Source of the DNA: a virus
Taxonomy: Duplodnaviria > Heunggongvirae > Uroviricota > Caudoviricetes
Virus record (IMG/VR): IMGVR_UViG_3300028591_000113
Span: 46,087-110,086 of that record
Direction: 5' to 3' (one strand)
DNA: 64,000 nucleotides
The notes under the pieces: model-generated
Seen by the model: the letters and a program-made list of their open reading frames with translations, nothing else
Databases searched by the model: none
What the model was told of the DNA's origin: nothing
Made by a program: the position numbers and the translations under genes
Shown: in pieces, positions 8,211-20,948 of the stretch
Position numbering within the stretch: the stretch's first letter is position 1
Layout of the letters: every line of letters starts with the position of its first letter

Positions 8211-8295
8211 CGGTGGATATACCGTAAGTAGTAGCGGGGCTGACTGTAAATCAGTTACGAAAGTTCGGGTGGTGCAACTCCATCTCCGCCGACCA
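8211..8295 (+). tRNA. tRNA-Tyr (GTA), class II, 85 nt, CCA encoded
   Basis: Acceptor CGGTGGA/TCCGCCG, anticodon loop CTGTAAA (as E. coli tRNA-Tyr), long variable arm, T-loop TGCAACT. Confidence 0.6.
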
Positions 8296-8296
8296 T

Positions 8297-8373
8297 GGGT
8301 CTCTAGCTCAATTGGTTAGAGCAGCCGGCTGTTAACCGGCAGGTTGTGGGTTCAAGTCCCTCGAGACCCGCCA
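8297..8373 (+). tRNA. tRNA-Asn (GTT)
   Basis: Acceptor GGGTCTC/GAGACCC, anticodon loop CTGTTAA, T-loop TTCAAGT, CCA encoded. Confidence 0.8.
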
Positions 8374-8394
8374 GAATTAGAAAGGACTTATCCT

Positions 8395-8496
8395 ATGTTA
8401 CAAACATTACGACAAGTTAAAGATAGACGAGCCAAGCAAAATATGAGAAATGCTATGAAGGCTCAAGCGCGCAAACGCTCTAAACTAAAAAAGTAA
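8395..8496 (+). CDS. very small basic protein (33 aa, Lys/Arg-rich)
   Basis: ATG..TAA ORF in tRNA array; low support. Confidence 0.2.
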   Translation: MLQTLRQVKDRRAKQNMRNAMKAQARKRSKLKK

Positions 8497-8604
8497 ACCG
8501 AAACAAGAGACGCGAGGTTCGAGTCCTCGTCGGTCGCCGGTGCGTAAAATGGTGACGCCAGGTGGGCTTGTTTCATAAGGGGTATCGCACTACCCCTCCA
8601 GATG

Positions 8605-8681
8605 GGGACGTTAATCCAACGGCTTAAGATACTGGTCTGTGAAACCAGGTAAGGCGAGTTCAATTCTCCCACGTCCCACCA
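8605..8681 (+). tRNA. tRNA-His (GTG) with encoded G-1
   Basis: Acceptor GGGACGT/ACGTCCC preceded by extra G (8604), anticodon loop CTGTGAA. Confidence 0.7.
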
Positions 8682-8686
8682 AACAT

Positions 8687-8765
8687 CGCCTCGTAGACAA
8701 ATTAGGCTAAAGTCATCTGCCTTTCACGCAGAAATTTGAGGGTTCGATTCCCTTCGAGGTGACCA
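8687..8765 (+). tRNA. tRNA-Glu (TTC)
   Basis: Acceptor CGCCTCG/CGAGGTG, anticodon stem TCTGC/GCAGA loop CTTTCAC, T-loop TTCGATT. Confidence 0.7.
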
Positions 8766-8770
8766 TACAT

Positions 8771-8846
8771 AGGAGTGTAGCTCAATAGGTGGAGCAGCGT
8801 CTTGATAAGGCGAAGGTCGTGGGTTCAATCCCCTCCACTCCTACCA
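8771..8846 (+). tRNA. tRNA-Ile (GAT)
   Basis: Near-identical architecture to E. coli tRNA-Ile(GAU): AGGxxTGTAGCTCA..TGATAA..GGTTCAA..CCTACCA. Confidence 0.8.
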
Positions 8847-8851
8847 AACAT

Positions 8852-8928
8852 GGATACGTAGCACAATTGAGTAGTGTACCTGCCTGTCACGCAGGATGTT
8901 GCGGGTTCGAGTCCCGTCGTATCCGCCA
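8852..8928 (+). tRNA. tRNA-Asp (GTC)
   Basis: Acceptor GGATACG/CGTATCC, anticodon stem CCTGC/GCAGG loop CTGTCAC. Confidence 0.8.
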
Positions 8929-9016
8929 AATAACTTAAAATAATTATGGACTTAACCCAAAAGAAAGTTTATAATTATTATATAGAAAGTTAAATAATAT
9001 AATTGTTTAACTAAAT

Positions 9017-9093
9017 GCGGTATTCGCCTAGTTGGTATGGCATCTGCCTTCCAAGCAGAAATAAGGTCGGTTCGAGACCGACATATCGCTCCA
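9017..9093 (+). tRNA. tRNA-Gly (TCC)
   Basis: Acceptor GCGGTAT/ATATCGC, anticodon stem TCTGC/GCAGA loop CTTCCAA, T-stem GTCGG/CCGAC. Confidence 0.75.
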
Positions 9094-9275
9094 AACAATT
9101 TATAACTCGTGGTTAGCCGAATGACGAATAAGACCTTTACAAGACGGTCTGTTGACTAAGCGTCGGTGTTTATCGAAAACTACAGTAGGCGCTATTTCGC
9201 TACGCTCGAAGACGGGAAGTAGATAAGGAAAGGTAAGCTCGGCCGTTAAACCTTTACACGAGTTATCATACATAT
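9094..9275 (+). other. structured spacer with 10-bp long-range inverted repeat (ATAACTCGTG...CACGAGTTAT) and internal hairpins
   Basis: Reverse-complementary 10-mers at 9104-9113 and 9258-9267, inner hairpin AGACC..GGTCT. Confidence 0.3.
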
Positions 9276-9351
9276 GGCGGGGTATAGCAGTTGGTAGCTT
9301 TTTAGGCTCATAACCTAAAGGTCGTTGGTTCGAGTCCAACCCCCGCAACCA
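9276..9351 (+). tRNA. tRNA-Met (CAT), possible initiator (G1-A72 mismatch)
   Basis: Acceptor GGCGGGG/CCCCGCA with position 1-72 mismatch, anticodon stem TTAGG/CCTAA loop CTCATAA, T-stem GTTGG/CCAAC. Confidence 0.65.
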
Positions 9352-9354
9352 GAT

Positions 9355-9429
9355 GCCCATGTAGCACAACGGTAGTGCAGTCGCCTTGTAAGCGAAAGGT
9401 TGGCAGTTCAAATCTGTTCTTGGGCACCA
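9355..9429 (+). tRNA. tRNA-Thr (TGT)
   Basis: Acceptor GCCCATG/CTTGGGC, D-stem GCAC/GTGC, anticodon loop CTTGTAA, T-loop TTCAAAT. Confidence 0.7.
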
Positions 9430-9583
9430 AACTAGACCACAAAAGACCGAGATACTCACCATCGATTCGTCGGTGGTACAGCCAAGAGGGGTGGGTAAGC
9501 AGTACTCTGCGGGATTATATTATATATAAGCACTAGGCGTAACGCTAATGGTCAATGGCTCAACCAAAAATGAGCCGCCATGT

Positions 9584-19310: not shown

Positions 19311-19496
19311 ATGGAAAAGGTTTACTTTATTTTTGATGATAGAATTTATTGCGGCGCAATCATGGATAAGAAAAGCGATGGTTGGATTGTCGCAGCAGGT
19401 AATGAAGTTATGTGGTTACCTATTACAGAACCACGCTTCAAATCATTAAATGAAGCACTTAGTTATAAATGTGGCGGAGTTTTAACACCACAATAA
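19311..19496 (+). CDS. small hypothetical protein (61 aa)
   Basis: ORF with AAGGAG RBS. Confidence 0.5.
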   Translation: MEKVYFIFDDRIYCGAIMDKKSDGWIVAAGNEVMWLPITEPRFKSLNEALSYKCGGVLTPQ

Positions 19497-19497
19497 T

Positions 19498-19572
19498 ACT
19501 CCTATAGCACAACGGTAATGCAACTGACTCTTAATCAGTGGAGTGAAGGTTCGAATCCTTCTGGGAGTACCA
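19498..19572 (+). tRNA. tRNA-Lys (CTT)
   Basis: Anticodon stem ACTGA/TCAGT loop CTCTTAA, T-arm GAAGG-TTCGAAT-CCTTC. Confidence 0.75.
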
Positions 19573-19576
19573 AAAT

Positions 19577-19656
19577 GCGCCCGTAGCTCAGCTGGTTTTT
19601 AGAGCATCTGACTTTTAATCAGGGGGTCGAAGGTTCGAATCCTTCCGGGCGCACCA
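19577..19656 (+). tRNA. tRNA-Lys (TTT)
   Basis: Acceptor GCGCCCG/CGGGCGC perfect, D-arm GCTC..GAGC, anticodon loop CTTTTAA. Confidence 0.8.
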
Positions 19657-19743
19657 ATTAATTTAATATGGCCCACGGGGTTTCCGGACGGTCCGTGAAA
19701 GCTTAACCTTTACGGAGGCATAAGAAAGGCAGAATTATAATTT

Positions 19744-20052
19744 ATGAGCAGAAGTTATAGAAAATCACCAGTTATTAAAGACAATGGCAAAGGCAAGAAA
19801 AAGCAAAAAGCAATCGCTAATAGAGTAGTCAGAAGAAAATTAAAAAATCCTGATTATGTTGTTCCTAATGGCGGTTCTTATACCAAGGAATACGAATCTT
19901 GGAGAATTGCTGATTATACTTCCAGATGCACTGAAGAAGAAGCCAAAGAAATGTGGCATCGTTCAATGAGAAAATATCCTTGGTTTAAAGAACACTACCC
20001 AACATTAGAATCTTATATGATTTGGTGGAAGAAAACTTATAGGAGCAAGTAG
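19744..20052 (+). CDS. basic hypothetical protein (102 aa)
   Basis: ORF. Confidence 0.55.
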   Translation: MSRSYRKSPVIKDNGKGKKKQKAIANRVVRRKLKNPDYVVPNGGSYTKEYESWRIADYTSRCTEEEAKEMWHRSMRKYPWFKEHYPTLESYMIWWKKTYRSK

Positions 20053-20053
20053 T

Positions 20054-20263
20054 ATGAAATTAACATATACAATTCAATGGACGGATCCAGTTAAACAAAA
20101 TATGCCATTCTTGAAAATTGATGGTGATGATAATATAGCATTATATATTGCCAAAAAGAAATTAGATGAAGGTATGGAAAATGTAGTCATCAGACTTAAT
20201 AAAGCCGTCGAAGGCAAAGAAGATGAGCATTATCCTGCCGTTGATAATGGAGACGTGGAGTAA
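20054..20263 (+). CDS. small hypothetical protein (69 aa)
   Basis: ORF; 3-prime end overlapped by tRNA-Ser(GCT). Confidence 0.5.
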   Translation: MKLTYTIQWTDPVKQNMPFLKIDGDDNIALYIAKKKLDEGMENVVIRLNKAVEGKEDEHYPAVDNGDVE

Positions 20264-20336
20264 TAGGTATCTCAAGAGATTGCTAATCTCTCCAACCTCC
20301 TGGGTTGTCCGGGTTCGAGTCCCGGCGCCTCCGCCA
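20249..20336 (+). tRNA. tRNA-Ser (GCT), class II, 5-prime end overlapping last 5 codons of upstream CDS
   Basis: Acceptor GGAGACG/CGCCTCC (6/7 bp), anticodon stem AGAGA/TCTCT loop TTGCTAA, variable-arm hairpin CAACC..GGTTG, T-arm CCGGG-TTCGAGT-CCCGG. Confidence 0.55.
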
Positions 20337-20339
20337 GAT

Positions 20340-20430
20340 GCGGGCTTAGTTATAAATGGTAAAACTTGTGTTGAAAAAGGAAGAAAACACTAACTGTCCT
20401 TGTTGCGGGTTCAACTCCCGTAGTCCGCTC
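20340..20430 (+). other. tRNA-like element (acceptor GCGGGCT/AGTCCGC, T-arm GCGGG-TTCAACT-CCCGT, no CCA) with unresolved anticodon arm; possible atypical or degenerate tRNA
   Basis: Clear acceptor and T-arm pairing about 91 nt apart; no 7-nt anticodon loop could be placed. Confidence 0.3.
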
Positions 20431-20593
20431 TTTACGTTCTTTTCAGGTTTATGCCATATCTGTAATCAGAAAGGCATACGAGGCTGCTATCGTGAATCGT
20501 AGCTTGGATCAGCGGCGAAGATCCGCTGGCGAGTGATTCTTGCCTAATCCGGCTCGGTCAAGTCGTTAGTAAGTGATTCTTACATGACCATAT

Positions 20594-20683
20594 AGAAGTG
20601 TGAGTGAGTCCGGTTTAAACTACTGGTCTAGAAAACCAGCGAACAGCAATGTTCCGTGGGTTCAAATCCCACCGCTTCTGCCA
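20594..20683 (+). tRNA. tRNA-Ser (AGA), class II, A34
   Basis: Acceptor AGAAGTG/CGCTTCT, anticodon stem CTGGT/ACCAG loop CTAGAAA, variable-arm hairpin GAAC..GTTC, T-stem GTGGG/CCCAC. Confidence 0.55.
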
Positions 20684-20699
20684 AAATTACAAACTACCT

Positions 20700-20786
20700 G
20701 GAGAGCTGTGATAACTGGTAGTCGGGCGGTCTTGAAAACCGTTGTACATTAATGTATTTAGGGTTCGAGTCCCTAGCTCTCCGCCA
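20700..20786 (+). tRNA. tRNA-Ser (TGA), class II
   Basis: Acceptor GGAGAGC/GCTCTCC perfect, anticodon stem GCGGT/ACCGT loop CTTGAAA, variable hairpin GTACAT..ATGTAT, T-arm TAGGG-TTCGAGT-CCCTA. Confidence 0.75.
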
Positions 20787-20790
20787 ATAT

Positions 20791-20868
20791 ACCCTCTTAG
20801 CTCAACTGGATTAGAGCACTTGGCTACGAACCAAGAGGTTGCGCGTTCGAATCGTGCAGAGGGTGCCA
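20791..20868 (+). tRNA. tRNA-Arg (ACG)
   Basis: Acceptor ACCCTCT/AGAGGGT perfect, anticodon stem CTTGG/CCAAG loop CTACGAA. Confidence 0.8.
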
Positions 20869-20871
20869 GAT

Positions 20872-20948
20872 ACCCACATAGCTCAACTGGACAGAGCAAT
20901 GGATTTCTAATCCATCGGTTGAGGGTTCGAGTCCTTCTGTGGGTGCCA
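20872..20948 (+). tRNA. tRNA-Arg (TCT)
   Basis: Acceptor ACCCACA/TGTGGGT perfect, anticodon stem ATGGA/TCCAT loop TTTCTAA. Confidence 0.8.

Follow-up and report, generated by a model that had tools for sequence, protein, structure and literature searches.

What does a phage transfer RNA (tRNA) island contain when much of it is neither tRNA nor protein gene, and what might such an arrangement do? The locus that raises this question lies at positions 8212–20948 of a 64,000-nucleotide (nt) stretch of phage DNA (the window; positions 46,087 to 110,086 of IMG/VR record IMGVR_UViG_3300028591_000113), where a sequence-only reading had listed 33 tRNA genes in two arrays with structured spacers between them. 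We put a probability of roughly 75% on the view that this is the tRNA island of a virulent phage that uses TGA as a tryptophan codon, and that the island combines a near-complete decoding set with conserved structured RNAs carried in the same predicted precursors. Foremost among these RNAs is a candidate of 1.15 kilobases (kb) located between a threonine and an alanine tRNA.

To establish the tRNA complement, genes were called with ARAGORN at default settings and with the Rfam tRNA model RF00005 (release 15, gathering score 29). Default ARAGORN reports 32 tRNA genes at 8297–20948, all on the plus strand, and the same 32 genes score 39.6–69.9 bits with the Rfam model. A further gene, tRNA-Tyr(GUA) at 8211/8212–8295, is missed by default ARAGORN and scores 23.9 bits with Rfam at 8213–8290, which is below threshold. 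It is picked up by ARAGORN at 90% thresholds. The genes form two clusters, one of 19 genes (8212–13056) and one of 14 genes (17288–20948), and are listed here together with one tRNA-like element.

8212–8295, +, tRNA-Tyr(GUA), type II, T-loop TGCAACT, CCA; Rfam 23.9 bits
8297–8373, +, tRNA-Asn(GUU); ARAGORN; Rfam 69.5 bits
8605–8681, +, tRNA-His(GUG); ARAGORN; Rfam 47.8 bits
8687–8765, +, tRNA-Glu(UUC); ARAGORN; Rfam 57.0 bits
8771–8846, +, tRNA-Ile(GAU); ARAGORN; Rfam 60.5 bits
8852–8928, +, tRNA-Asp(GUC); ARAGORN; Rfam 65.7 bits
9017–9093, +, tRNA-Gly(UCC); ARAGORN; Rfam 53.6 bits
9276–9351, +, initiator tRNA-fMet(CAU), as judged from its sequence features; Rfam 55.3 bits
9355–9429, +, tRNA-Thr(UGU); ARAGORN; Rfam 63.4 bits
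9584–9659, +, tRNA-Thr(AGU), A34; ARAGORN; Rfam 63.8 bits
10809–10884, +, tRNA-Ala(UGC); ARAGORN; Rfam 67.9 bits
11024–11101, +, tRNA-Pro(UGG); ARAGORN; Rfam 60.1 bits
11290–11365, +, tRNA-Leu(CAA), 76 nt, no long variable arm, A73; ARAGORN; Rfam 49.3 bits
11367–11452, +, tRNA-Leu(UAA), type II; ARAGORN; Rfam 54.4 bits
11738–11812, +, tRNA-Trp(CCA), A1:U72, G73; ARAGORN; Rfam 51.7 bits
12269–12343, +, tRNA-Gly(GCC), copy 1; ARAGORN; Rfam 51.1 bits
12738–12813, +, tRNA-Val(UAC); ARAGORN; Rfam 49.0 bits
12815–12888, +, tRNA-Gly(GCC), copy 2; ARAGORN; Rfam 57.9 bits
12979–13056, +, tRNA-Val(GAC), last of array 1; ARAGORN; Rfam 53.9 bits
17288–17363, +, tRNA-Cys(GCA), first of array 2; ARAGORN; Rfam 55.4 bits
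17369–17446, +, tRNA(CAU), probable tRNA-Ile2, C33; Rfam 47.9 bits
17874–17953, +, tRNA-Gln(UUG); ARAGORN; Rfam 55.9 bits
17956–18027, +, tRNA-Met(CAU), probable elongator type, 72 nt; Rfam 39.6 bits
18103–18177, +, tRNA-Phe(GAA); ARAGORN; Rfam 52.5 bits
18183–18271, +, tRNA-Leu(GAG), type II; ARAGORN; Rfam 41.9 bits
19212–19288, +, tRNA-Leu(UAG), 77 nt, no long variable arm, A73; ARAGORN; Rfam 53.5 bits
19498–19572, +, tRNA-Lys(CUU); ARAGORN; Rfam 67.4 bits
19577–19656, +, tRNA-Lys(UUU); ARAGORN; Rfam 69.9 bits
20249–20336, +, tRNA-Ser(GCU); ARAGORN; Rfam 51.8 bits
20340–20430, +, tRNA-like element, probable pseudogene; Rfam 32.1 bits; relaxed ARAGORN
20594–20683, +, tRNA-Ser(AGA), A34; ARAGORN; Rfam 50.2 bits
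20700–20786, +, tRNA-Ser(UGA); ARAGORN; Rfam 46.5 bits (E-value run)
20791–20868, +, tRNA-Arg(ACG); ARAGORN; Rfam 60.9 bits
20872–20948, +, tRNA-Arg(UCU), last of array 2; ARAGORN; Rfam 67.5 bits

We accept tRNA-Tyr as the 33rd gene because of the ARAGORN call at 90% thresholds, a minimum free energy (MFE) fold that is a type II cloverleaf with the unusual T-loop TGCAACT, conservation in the relatives L002, L006, and L007 (L-numbers denote related phage loci or contigs compared with the window), and 97% identity over 67 nt to a sequence present in about 30 Enterococcus Schiekvirus (Herelleviridae) genomes. Enterococcus phage 113 annotates the matching sequence as tRNA-Tyr within its own tRNA cluster. 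The alignment joins window positions 8218–8284 to positions 1501–1567 of L017, which represents the Enterococcus phages, and includes the unusual T-loop. Since tRNA-Tyr is the only window tRNA with a match in the Schiekvirus Enterococcus phages, the pattern suggests that a single tRNA gene has been exchanged between unrelated phages, and perhaps that the host belongs to Bacillota. The alanine tRNA matches a few Cronobacter phages at about 90%. With tRNA-Tyr included, the count of 33, the two arrays and their positions, the coverage of all 20 amino acids, and the three CAU anticodons given by the sequence-only reading are borne out by ARAGORN and Rfam.

The 3′-CCA is encoded in 33 of 33 tRNAs, and many neighboring genes are 1–5 nt apart. 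Unusual features within the set include C33, altered T-loops, and an A1:U72 pair at the start of 9 of 35 tRNA-type genes (the 33 tRNAs, the pseudo-tRNA, and a suppressor tRNA described below). The two leucine tRNAs singled out earlier as odd are Leu(CAA) and Leu(UAG), which have no long variable arm and keep A73; the L002 orthologue of Leu(CAA) is 83 nt long. The tRNA-like element at 20340–20430 (91 nt; 32.1 bits at 20340–20429; labeled “Phe(GAA)” by relaxed ARAGORN) shows an acceptor stem and a T-arm. The missing CCA, the poorly paired anticodon stem, and the lack of a counterpart at the corresponding position in L002 make it a probable pseudogene. An ARAGORN search of the spacers for transfer-messenger RNA (tmRNA), intron-containing tRNAs, and mitochondrial-type tRNAs returned low-confidence noise only.

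At relaxed thresholds, all 20 amino acids and the gene order are kept in the relatives. There are 30 genes in L002, and L007 (9 genes) and L018 (23 genes), which derive from one sample and were combined for this comparison, together cover the same 20-amino-acid set in the same order. Because both order and coverage are kept in diverged relatives, the complete tRNA set appears to be under selection. The relatives also carry extra species: Leu(AAG) and an 89-nt “Asn(AUU)” in L023 (5187–5273 and 5949–6037), and an 89-nt “Asn(GUU)” with a long extra arm in L020 (4042–4130).

The set provides 30 distinct anticodons. According to standard wobble rules (G34 pairs with U and C; U34 with A and G, or with any base in the Pro and Ala boxes; A34, as inosine, with U, C, and A; and lysidine-modified CAU reads AUA), every sense codon is readable except CGG. 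When the anticodons were compared with codon usage in TGA-free and TGA-containing genes, this sole unread codon accounted for 0 of 232 and 2 of 237 arginine codons, respectively. Phage genes show a strong bias toward A or U at the third codon position, with a GC content at that position of 0.21–0.28. Apart from tRNA-Arg, tRNAs with A34 are unusual in bacteria. Here Thr(AGU), Ser(AGA), and Arg(ACG) match the favored codons ACU, UCU, and CGU exactly; ACU is the most used threonine codon (43%–49%), and UCU makes up 26%–30% of serine codons. The set also reads rarely used codons, including CUC (2%–6%), UUG (9%–10%), GGA, and AAG.

Sequence features and gene position point to distinct roles for the three CAU tRNAs. 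The gene at 9276–9351 is, by its features, an initiator tRNA. Its 1:72 position is unpaired (G1xA72), as it is in the orthologues of L002 and L007 (C1xA72) and L015 (A1xA72), and A72 occurs in 4 of 4 initiator orthologues whatever the identity of base 1. An A11:U24 pair can be read from the sequence. The anticodon stem (TTAGG/CCTAA) has two G:C pairs, whereas three consecutive pairs are typical of initiators. The gene at 17956–18027 would serve as the elongator methionine tRNA. This 72-nt “elongator-like” species has a reduced D-loop without GG and a T-loop of TGCGACT, its MFE fold is a cloverleaf, and it is kept in L001, L002, L006, L018, and L020.

The third CAU tRNA (17369–17446) has an unusual C33 and is located between the Cys and Gln genes. 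A CAU tRNA occupies this slot in the window, L006, and L020, and the tRNA adjoining Cys is tRNA-Ile(UAU) in L002 and L018; L023 has tRNA-Ile(UAU) elsewhere in its array. AUA represents 17%–23% of isoleucine codons. From its slot position, this gene is probably a tRNA-Ile2 that would read AUA after lysidine modification by TilS, and the CAU and UAU tRNAs may be alternative solutions for decoding AUA.

Approximately 5 kb of the 13.9-kb island is neither tRNA nor open reading frame (ORF) and yet is conserved. The structured spacers noted by the sequence-only reading are real, and that reading understated what is the most unusual content of the region. The largest of them fills the entire gap between two tRNAs.

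9660–10808, +, conserved structured RNA of 1149 nt, the whole tRNA-Thr(AGU)–tRNA-Ala gap; homologues and covariation

This region begins with a 5′ domain that has a 23-base-pair (bp) closing helix (about 9666–9906), followed by a variable insert, a highly conserved core, an optional domain of ∼260 nt, and a conserved 3′ end that abuts tRNA-Ala. Homologues occupy the same slot in L002, L006, L015, L014, and L016, and partly in L007. The L002 homologue is 1118 nt long; that of L006 is about 920 nt and is followed by extra tRNA-like sequence; that of L015 is about 1030 nt, with ∼80 nt extra before tRNA-Ala; and L014 carries a minimal version of 721 nt. L016 is the same phage as the window (99.65% identical). 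The L007 copy follows tRNA-Thr and is partial, being ended by the contig end. Every full-length copy (window/L016, L002, L006, L015, and L014) is flanked by tRNA-Thr and tRNA-Ala, and a search with an nhmmer profile of the RNA finds exactly one copy per phage.

Five copies (window, L002, L006, L015, and L014) were aligned for structural analysis. Blocks that are invariant in 5 of 5 copies are separated by inserts that have been gained or lost. In the alignment of the window with L002, the RNA is better conserved than the adjacent tRNA-Thr, and the L007 copy has 94% identity over 294 nt, against 53% for the flanking protein. RNAalifold predicts 199 pairs from the five sequences, with 95% of the alignment cells paired. 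Changes on both sides of a pair are found in 40 of the 199 pairs, compared with 18.9 ± 2.8 in shuffled alignments (0 of 500 reach 40) and with 2–12 pairs in controls in which the partners were slid by 1–3 columns. For example, double substitutions preserve a helix that is CAAGTT/AACTTG in the window, TGGATT/AATCCA in L002, and TGGGTT/AACCCA in L007. In addition, at least 10 conserved G-U pairs are compatible with the plus strand only.

No long ORF is present in 9660–10808 under any stop-codon scheme, even with TAA as the sole stop, and the conserved blocks contain 1-nt insertions or deletions (indels). A search of the isolated region (9655–10812) against Rfam 15 gave no match at E ≤ 10. With the same tool, GOLLD (RF02032) was found in Caulobacter phage phiCbK at 165.3 bits. 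The nhmmer profile matches neither the phiCbK GOLLD nor the ROOL RNA of the window, and BLAST detects no similarity to that ROOL. Because of the compensatory changes, the absence of coding potential, and the strand specificity, 9660–10808 is to be regarded, at the level of sequence comparison, as a structured noncoding RNA outside any curated family. We found no description of an RNA like it in the literature.

Scanning of Joint Genome Institute (JGI) metagenomes for exact patterns yielded three true homologues, with chance matches in L012 and L013. Patterns from the RNA gave no match in IMG/VR (four DNA patterns, the first of which is not invariant) or in GTDB representative genomes (two patterns), and the latter result leaves no prophage or host lead. 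Looking for further full-length copies by way of a third flanking protein recovered the arrays, but the assemblies break inside the RNA, at the end of L007 and at the start of L018. The motif GGGACAGAAC raised the possibility of an RNase P RNA. This candidate was rejected, as there is no Rfam match and the would-be partner region is not conserved.

Several other noncoding units in the window are conserved among the relatives, and ROOL is a family already known.

9094–9275, +, S3 structured spacer RNA, ∼180 nt, between tRNA-Gly(UCC) and the initiator; six phages
12092–12268, +, tRNA-like element between tRNA-Trp and tRNA-Gly(GCC); conservation, predicted fold
14880–15838, +, free-standing noncoding unit between the arrays; promoter 14880–14908, terminator 15818–15838
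23707–24300, +, ROOL RNA, 2.8 kb downstream of array 2; Rfam RF03087, 196.4 bits, gathering score 99.1

The S3 spacer is closed by a 10-bp helix and capped by a conserved apical hairpin, and its middle is variable. RNAalifold predicts 24 pairs, of which eight show compensatory double changes, including a closing-helix pair that is GC, AU, or UA. It has no Rfam match. The element at 12092–12268 has an acceptor stem, a D-like arm, a canonical T-arm (GTTGG-TTCAATT-CCAAC), and CCA, and a long branched arm (about 12093–12205) replaces the anticodon arm. An H-type pseudoknot is possible at about 12213–12262. This element is called by ARAGORN weakly and at 80% thresholds only. It is 94%–95% identical in L002, L018, L019, and L020–22, always between Trp and Gly(GCC), in phages whose proteins are 66%–69% identical.

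The unit at 14880–15838 comprises a perfect TTGACA-17-TATAAT promoter, ∼900 nt without an ORF (with TGA, TAG, or both read through), and a terminator. A core of ∼450 nt has close to 95% identity in L002 and L006, where the promoter and terminator are kept, and the comparison reveals frame-breaking indels of 1–2 nt. No Rfam match was obtained. A 65-nt block of this unit (15456–15520) is 100% identical to L014 1236–1300. In L014 the block falls in the interval from tRNA-Gly(UCC) to tRNA-Thr(UGU), where it adjoins or forms part of the variable portion of a motif of the 9094–9275 type. Structured modules seem to be shuffled between RNAs.

Further spacers at 8496–8604, 9430–9583, 10885–11023, 11813–11930, and 12547–12737 are 91%–100% conserved in the closest relatives. 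No paralogy was detected among the noncoding blocks or to ROOL, except for a 30-nt motif common to 10885–11023 and 12344–12737. This motif, TATA..AGAGAA.G.AAACTCTTAAAAC, occurs at 10890–10919 and 12348–12377, in each case starting a spacer just after a tRNA, and may be an internal promoter or a processing signal. The MFE z-scores of the spacers are mixed (−4.3 for the 5′ domain and about 0 for others) and were not used as evidence.

ROOL is found after or between the arrays in the relatives as well (L002 16617–17192, L018 8769–9346, L020 8908–9495, and L023 4047–4629); all relatives whose contigs extend far enough have ROOL adjacent to or between their arrays. The sequences flanking ROOL in the window (23350–23706 and 24301–24531) are conserved and have no ORF. 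Near the start of the window, a block of about 1.6 kb (∼270–1830) contains no ORF in any stop-codon scheme and may be a further large noncoding RNA. It is 86%–88% identical in L004 and L006 and 72%–79% identical in L007 and L009, is located in the relatives downstream from a sigma-70 gene and a 164-amino-acid ORF, is preceded by TGGACT-17-TATAAT at 244–272, and gave no Rfam match at E ≤ 5.

Candidate transcription signals offer a view of how these RNAs could be expressed. A consensus scan found perfect or near-perfect TTGACA-17-TATAAT sites at 7304, 8947, 14880, 17053, and 17457, and a scan for hairpins followed by T-runs found terminators at 7983, 13070, 15818, and 17250.

8947–8975, +, putative promoter TGGACT-17-TATAAT ahead of tRNA-Gly(UCC); consensus scan, 10/12 matches
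13070–13088, +, intrinsic-terminator-like hairpin and T-run, closes array 1; scan

Members of the 8947 motif family (repeat family D9) are also present at 7304, 17053, and 17457, with a related TGGACT-17-TATAAT site at 13073, and the terminator at 13070–13088 is repeated at 15818–15838 (repeat family D8). These signals would define 8985–13090 as one precursor of ∼4.1 kb carrying 13 tRNAs, two short ORFs, and most of the structured spacers. Upstream of the arrays, a perfect sigma-70 promoter (7304–7332) is followed by a conserved noncoding leader of about 490 nt (to 7824), whose 3′ 110 nt are 91%–99% identical in L004–L006, and then by a 41-codon ORF and a terminator (7983–8005).

The genome that carries the island shows clear signs of genetic recoding. 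From about 37 kb onward, large gaps separate the standard-code ORFs, and TGA readthrough fills them, giving an ORF coverage of 0.85–1.0 in windows spanning 40–60 kb. The earlier gene set has 0 TGA and 117 TGG codons and the later set has 87 TGA and 63 TGG codons; some replication genes, such as the helicase, also contain TGA. All listed genes stop with TAA or TAG. Because TGA aligns with tryptophan at conserved positions of paralogous glycosyltransferase-like genes, we conclude from these alignments that the phage reads TGA as Trp. A candidate decoder of this codon is encoded in the same region.

42843–42939, +, TGA-suppressor tRNA(UCA), 97 nt; ARAGORN “SeC(tca)”; Rfam 58.9 bits

This tRNA has A1:U72 and G73, as does the phage tRNA-Trp(CCA), together with an extra variable-region arm of about 27 nt, and is located directly upstream of five paralogous genes with 6–9 in-frame TGA codons each. 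The “SeC” label assigned by ARAGORN is a mislabel for a TGA suppressor.

The phage origin proposed by the sequence-only reading is supported by a phage-type topoisomerase II, a helicase, and a ligase in the window, by genes that are mostly orphans, and by the in-frame TGA codons of the later genes. No close relatives were found among GenBank phages, where the best topoisomerase match is 38.7%, or by a protein search of IMG/VR. The same reading had invoked a jumbo phage, and a genome of >200 kb is not supported. The source contig falls in the 50–200-kb class, the closest long relative, which is also the longest relative contig, is 124,268 bp, and the features fit the Agate phages of ∼127 kb. 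Agate are described as virulent TGA→Trp phages of ∼127 kb from cattle, pig, and tortoise guts (Borges et al., bioRxiv 10.1101/2021.08.26.457843).

As in Agate, TGA encodes Trp, the recoded genes lie in one part of the genome and the rest is TGA-free, only TAA and TAG serve as stops, there is a suppressor tRNA(UCA), and the sizes are similar (124 kb for the relative versus ∼127 kb). The contigs of the relatives come from public metagenome assemblies. Unlike Agate, the window has some replication genes that also carry TGA, and the portion of the Agate paper accessible to us has no description of the tRNA island and its RNAs. The phage therefore resembles Agate in these shared features, with a size of about 125 kb. 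The Agate study of Borges and colleagues was reportedly published in Nature Microbiology in 2022.

Searches of the ORFs in and beside the arrays against Pfam, PHROG, NCBIfam, and PDB sequences matched only an HAD_SAK_2 protein and metallophosphoesterases. The same domain and sequence searches found no RNA ligase, kinase, CCA-adding enzyme, tryptophanyl-tRNA synthetase, or release factor in the window. No terminase was identified there either.

16147–16662, +, HAD_SAK_2 protein (“Swiss Army Knife” RNA-repair HAD) between the arrays; Pfam PF18143, E = 1.4e-24

A metallophosphoesterase upstream of the arrays (5649–6434) has weak similarity to Pnkp and to RNA-ligase-associated phosphatases, and its gene and the HAD_SAK_2 gene are both syntenic in relatives. 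The two proteins give weak hints toward a conflict involving RNA damage. Inside array 2, between Leu(GAG) and Leu(UAG), a 154-amino-acid ORF (18396–18860) has 91% DNA identity in L002. L018 and L020 carry 146-amino-acid ORFs in the corresponding location, and searches of Pfam, PHROG, NCBIfam, and PDB sequences gave no match for the window ORF. Directly upstream of tRNA-Tyr is a 61-amino-acid Cys-rich ORF (8024–8209), and the ORF at this position in L007 has a weak Pfam match to FeThRed_B (ferredoxin-thioredoxin reductase catalytic subunit). Elsewhere in the window, a cyclic di-GMP (c-di-GMP)-I riboswitch aptamer (28772–28847, 58.8 bits) lies 22 nt upstream of a 191-amino-acid ORF with a signal-peptide-like N terminus (28870–29445). 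Because of this arrangement, the phage gene is apparently wired to host c-di-GMP, which may be a hint to host taxonomy.

Why a phage would maintain so complete a tRNA set can be explained in more than one way, the candidates being a codon mismatch with the host, loss of host tRNAs to cleavage or depletion, and support for the code switch. In a scheme of codon compensation, tRNAs are kept only for codons that are frequent in the AT-rich phage and rare in its host. The A34 tRNAs for Thr, Ser, and Arg, which are cognate to preferred U-ending codons, and the strong A/U bias at third positions agree with this scheme. However, the set is unselective, in that it also reads the rarely used CUC, UUG, GGA, and AAG codons and includes an initiator, and the full 20-amino-acid set and its order are kept across diverged relatives. 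We therefore find codon compensation a doubtful explanation. A counter-defense role, in which phage tRNAs make up for host tRNAs lost to cleavage or depletion, whether through host anticodon nucleases or through shut-off by the phage itself, deserves serious attention even though we would not place it first. There is published precedent for phage tRNAs with this function (PMC10264068), and a complete and conserved set, the HAD_SAK_2 protein between the arrays, the upstream metallophosphoesterase with its weak Pnkp/RNA-ligase-family similarity, and the unusual tRNA features (C33, altered T-loops, and A1:U72 in 9 of 35) are all consistent with it. In contrast, no nuclease, RNA ligase, or kinase was identified in the window. 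Moreover, counter-defense is compatible with the idea of an island that unites a near-complete decoding set with structured RNAs, rather than exclusive of it. The proposal of translational autonomy made by the sequence-only reading holds in spirit: The tRNA set is essentially self-sufficient and conserved, and selection for completeness is plausible; the jumbo genome size tied to that proposal is the part that lacks support.

The spacers likewise admit other explanations. That they have no function as RNA, and instead represent remnants of tRNA genes, scars of recombination, or elements that work as DNA (origins or packaging sites, for instance), seems highly improbable. T-arm-like fragments at 8496–8604 and 12092–12205, the pseudo-tRNA at 20340–20430, the unremarkable MFE z-scores of several spacers, and modules that change position (the 65-nt block shared by the RNA near 15 kb and the L014 array) could be cited in its favor, but the spacers are more conserved than the surrounding tRNAs and proteins, exhibit compensatory double substitutions, have conserved G-U pairs that fit the transcribed strand only, and include one unit (14880–15838) with its own perfect promoter and terminator. 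It is quite unlikely that the RNAs act in cis only, as folding or processing scaffolds or as leaders that set the order or yield of tRNA maturation. Their location inside the tRNA precursor, ends that abut tRNA ends, and fixed partners (Gly and initiator Met for S3; Trp and Gly for 12092–12268) would suit such a role. Nevertheless, a length of 1.15 kb, about 200 base pairs, and blocks invariant in 5 of 5 copies far exceed the needs of a processing spacer, tRNAs within the same arrays are often only 1–5 nt apart, and the 14880–15838 RNA has no adjacent tRNA. We also judge it very unlikely that the 1.15-kb RNA is, instead of a new family, a highly divergent homologue of GOLLD or ROOL. Like both, it is found in a phage tRNA island, and its plan recalls that of GOLLD, with lower conservation in the 5′ domain, a linker that varies, and a 3′ part that is conserved. 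However, GOLLD in phiCbK and ROOL in the window were both found by Rfam searches that gave no match to this RNA at E ≤ 10, and the nhmmer profile and BLAST agree, although Rfam speed filters could hide a very remote relationship.

Several points weigh against our favored interpretation of a decoding set combined with structured RNAs. The covariation is drawn from five full-length sequences, whose alignment also supplied the structure that was tested. High identity among distant phages could partly reflect recent exchange of modules and not purifying selection. The promoters and terminators were recognized by consensus matching, and promoter matches overall are no more numerous than in shuffled sequences. 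Among the tRNAs, tRNA-Tyr is below standard calling thresholds, the four-codon Pro and Ala boxes depend on four-way U34 wobble, and the Ile2 assignment is positional, the UAU tRNA of the relatives not being its sequence homologue. Finally, the functional analogy of the spacer RNAs to ROOL and GOLLD is taken from genomic context alone.

The model that we favor can be outlined as follows. In a virulent, Agate-resembling phage of about 125 kb from a gut or rumen sample, transcription of the clusters would start at sigma-70-type promoters, stop at intrinsic terminators, and yield a small number of long precursors. These would be matured by host RNase P and by 3′ trimming, and CCA addition would not be needed because CCA is encoded in the tRNA genes. 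The phage could then translate its AT-rich, recoded genes independently of the host tRNA pool, with the tRNA(UCA) at 42.8 kb reading the TGA codons of the later genes. Because the 1.15-kb RNA fills the gap from tRNA-Thr to tRNA-Ala, maturation of these two tRNAs would free it with defined ends. Our best guess is that the spacer RNAs are trans-acting RNAs of the ROOL/GOLLD kind that act on the translation apparatus during takeover. A bolder version, which we consider unlikely, is that the clade carries several undescribed classes of giant structured RNAs (the 1.15-kb Thr–Ala RNA, the ∼0.9-kb RNA at 14.9–15.8 kb, the ∼1.6-kb block at the window start, and the tRNA-like element at 12.1 kb), which would be released by tRNA processing and form RNA-only assemblies that act on tRNAs or ribosomes and help the decoding switch, including TGA = Trp.

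The tRNA array and the TGA recoding are of already known kinds, and the census alone is a good but ordinary example. To our knowledge, bacterial and phage RNAs of >500 nt with conserved ornate folds are very rare, and those we know of are ribosomal RNA, group II introns, RNase P, tmRNA, OLE, GOLLD, ROOL, HEARO, and raiA. The embedded RNAs, and the 1.15-kb Thr–Ala RNA above all, would extend the short list of giant structured phage RNAs. In this one lineage, ROOL is accompanied by at least one other large conserved RNA that belongs to no known family, and probably by several. RNAs embedded in tRNA precursors are new structural candidates, and their context ties this kind of RNA to tRNA processing and to a code change. 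The clade also offers a clean natural system for studying why phages carry tRNAs, with its apparently selected full set, its avoidance of CGG, and its use of CAU or UAU tRNAs for AUA. ROOL was first found in cow rumen data (PMC5737381). The genes for ROOL and GOLLD typically lie close to tRNA islands of phages, and both RNAs assemble into cages made of RNA only (PMC12286853; PMC5737381). These cages have made the function of such RNAs a pressing question.

The 1.15-kb RNA is like GOLLD (RF02032) in being very large and adjacent to phage tRNAs, and in having a variable 5′ part and a conserved 3′ part. It differs in having no covariance-model or profile match to GOLLD and no tRNA embedded inside it. 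With ROOL (RF03087) it shares the same niche, but it is twice as long and has no sequence similarity to the ROOL of the window. Oligomeric cages are a property of ROOL, which is also reported to accumulate at high copy number. Processing of RNAs punctuated by tRNAs is familiar from mitochondrial transcripts and from MALAT1-mascRNA. The phage arrangement resembles these systems in that a non-tRNA RNA is directly flanked by tRNA structures, and for this reason RNase P and 3′ processing would define the ends of the spacer RNAs. The difference is that the context here is bacterial or phage and the processing is predicted.

Like the tRNA clusters of big virulent phages (T4- and T5-like phages, phiCbK, Schiekvirus Enterococcus phages, and Lak megaphages), the island is same-strand and tightly packed, is located in an early or middle region, and contains small ORFs. 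The resemblance to Schiekvirus clusters extends to the tRNA-Tyr that is 97% identical, and phiCbK likewise combines tRNAs with a large RNA, which in that phage is GOLLD. Compared with these clusters, the island described here covers 20 amino acids plus an initiator and a probable Ile2, and reads all used codons, in a genome of only about 125 kb. It is further distinguished by the roughly 5 kb of its 13.9 kb that is conserved sequence other than tRNAs and ORFs.

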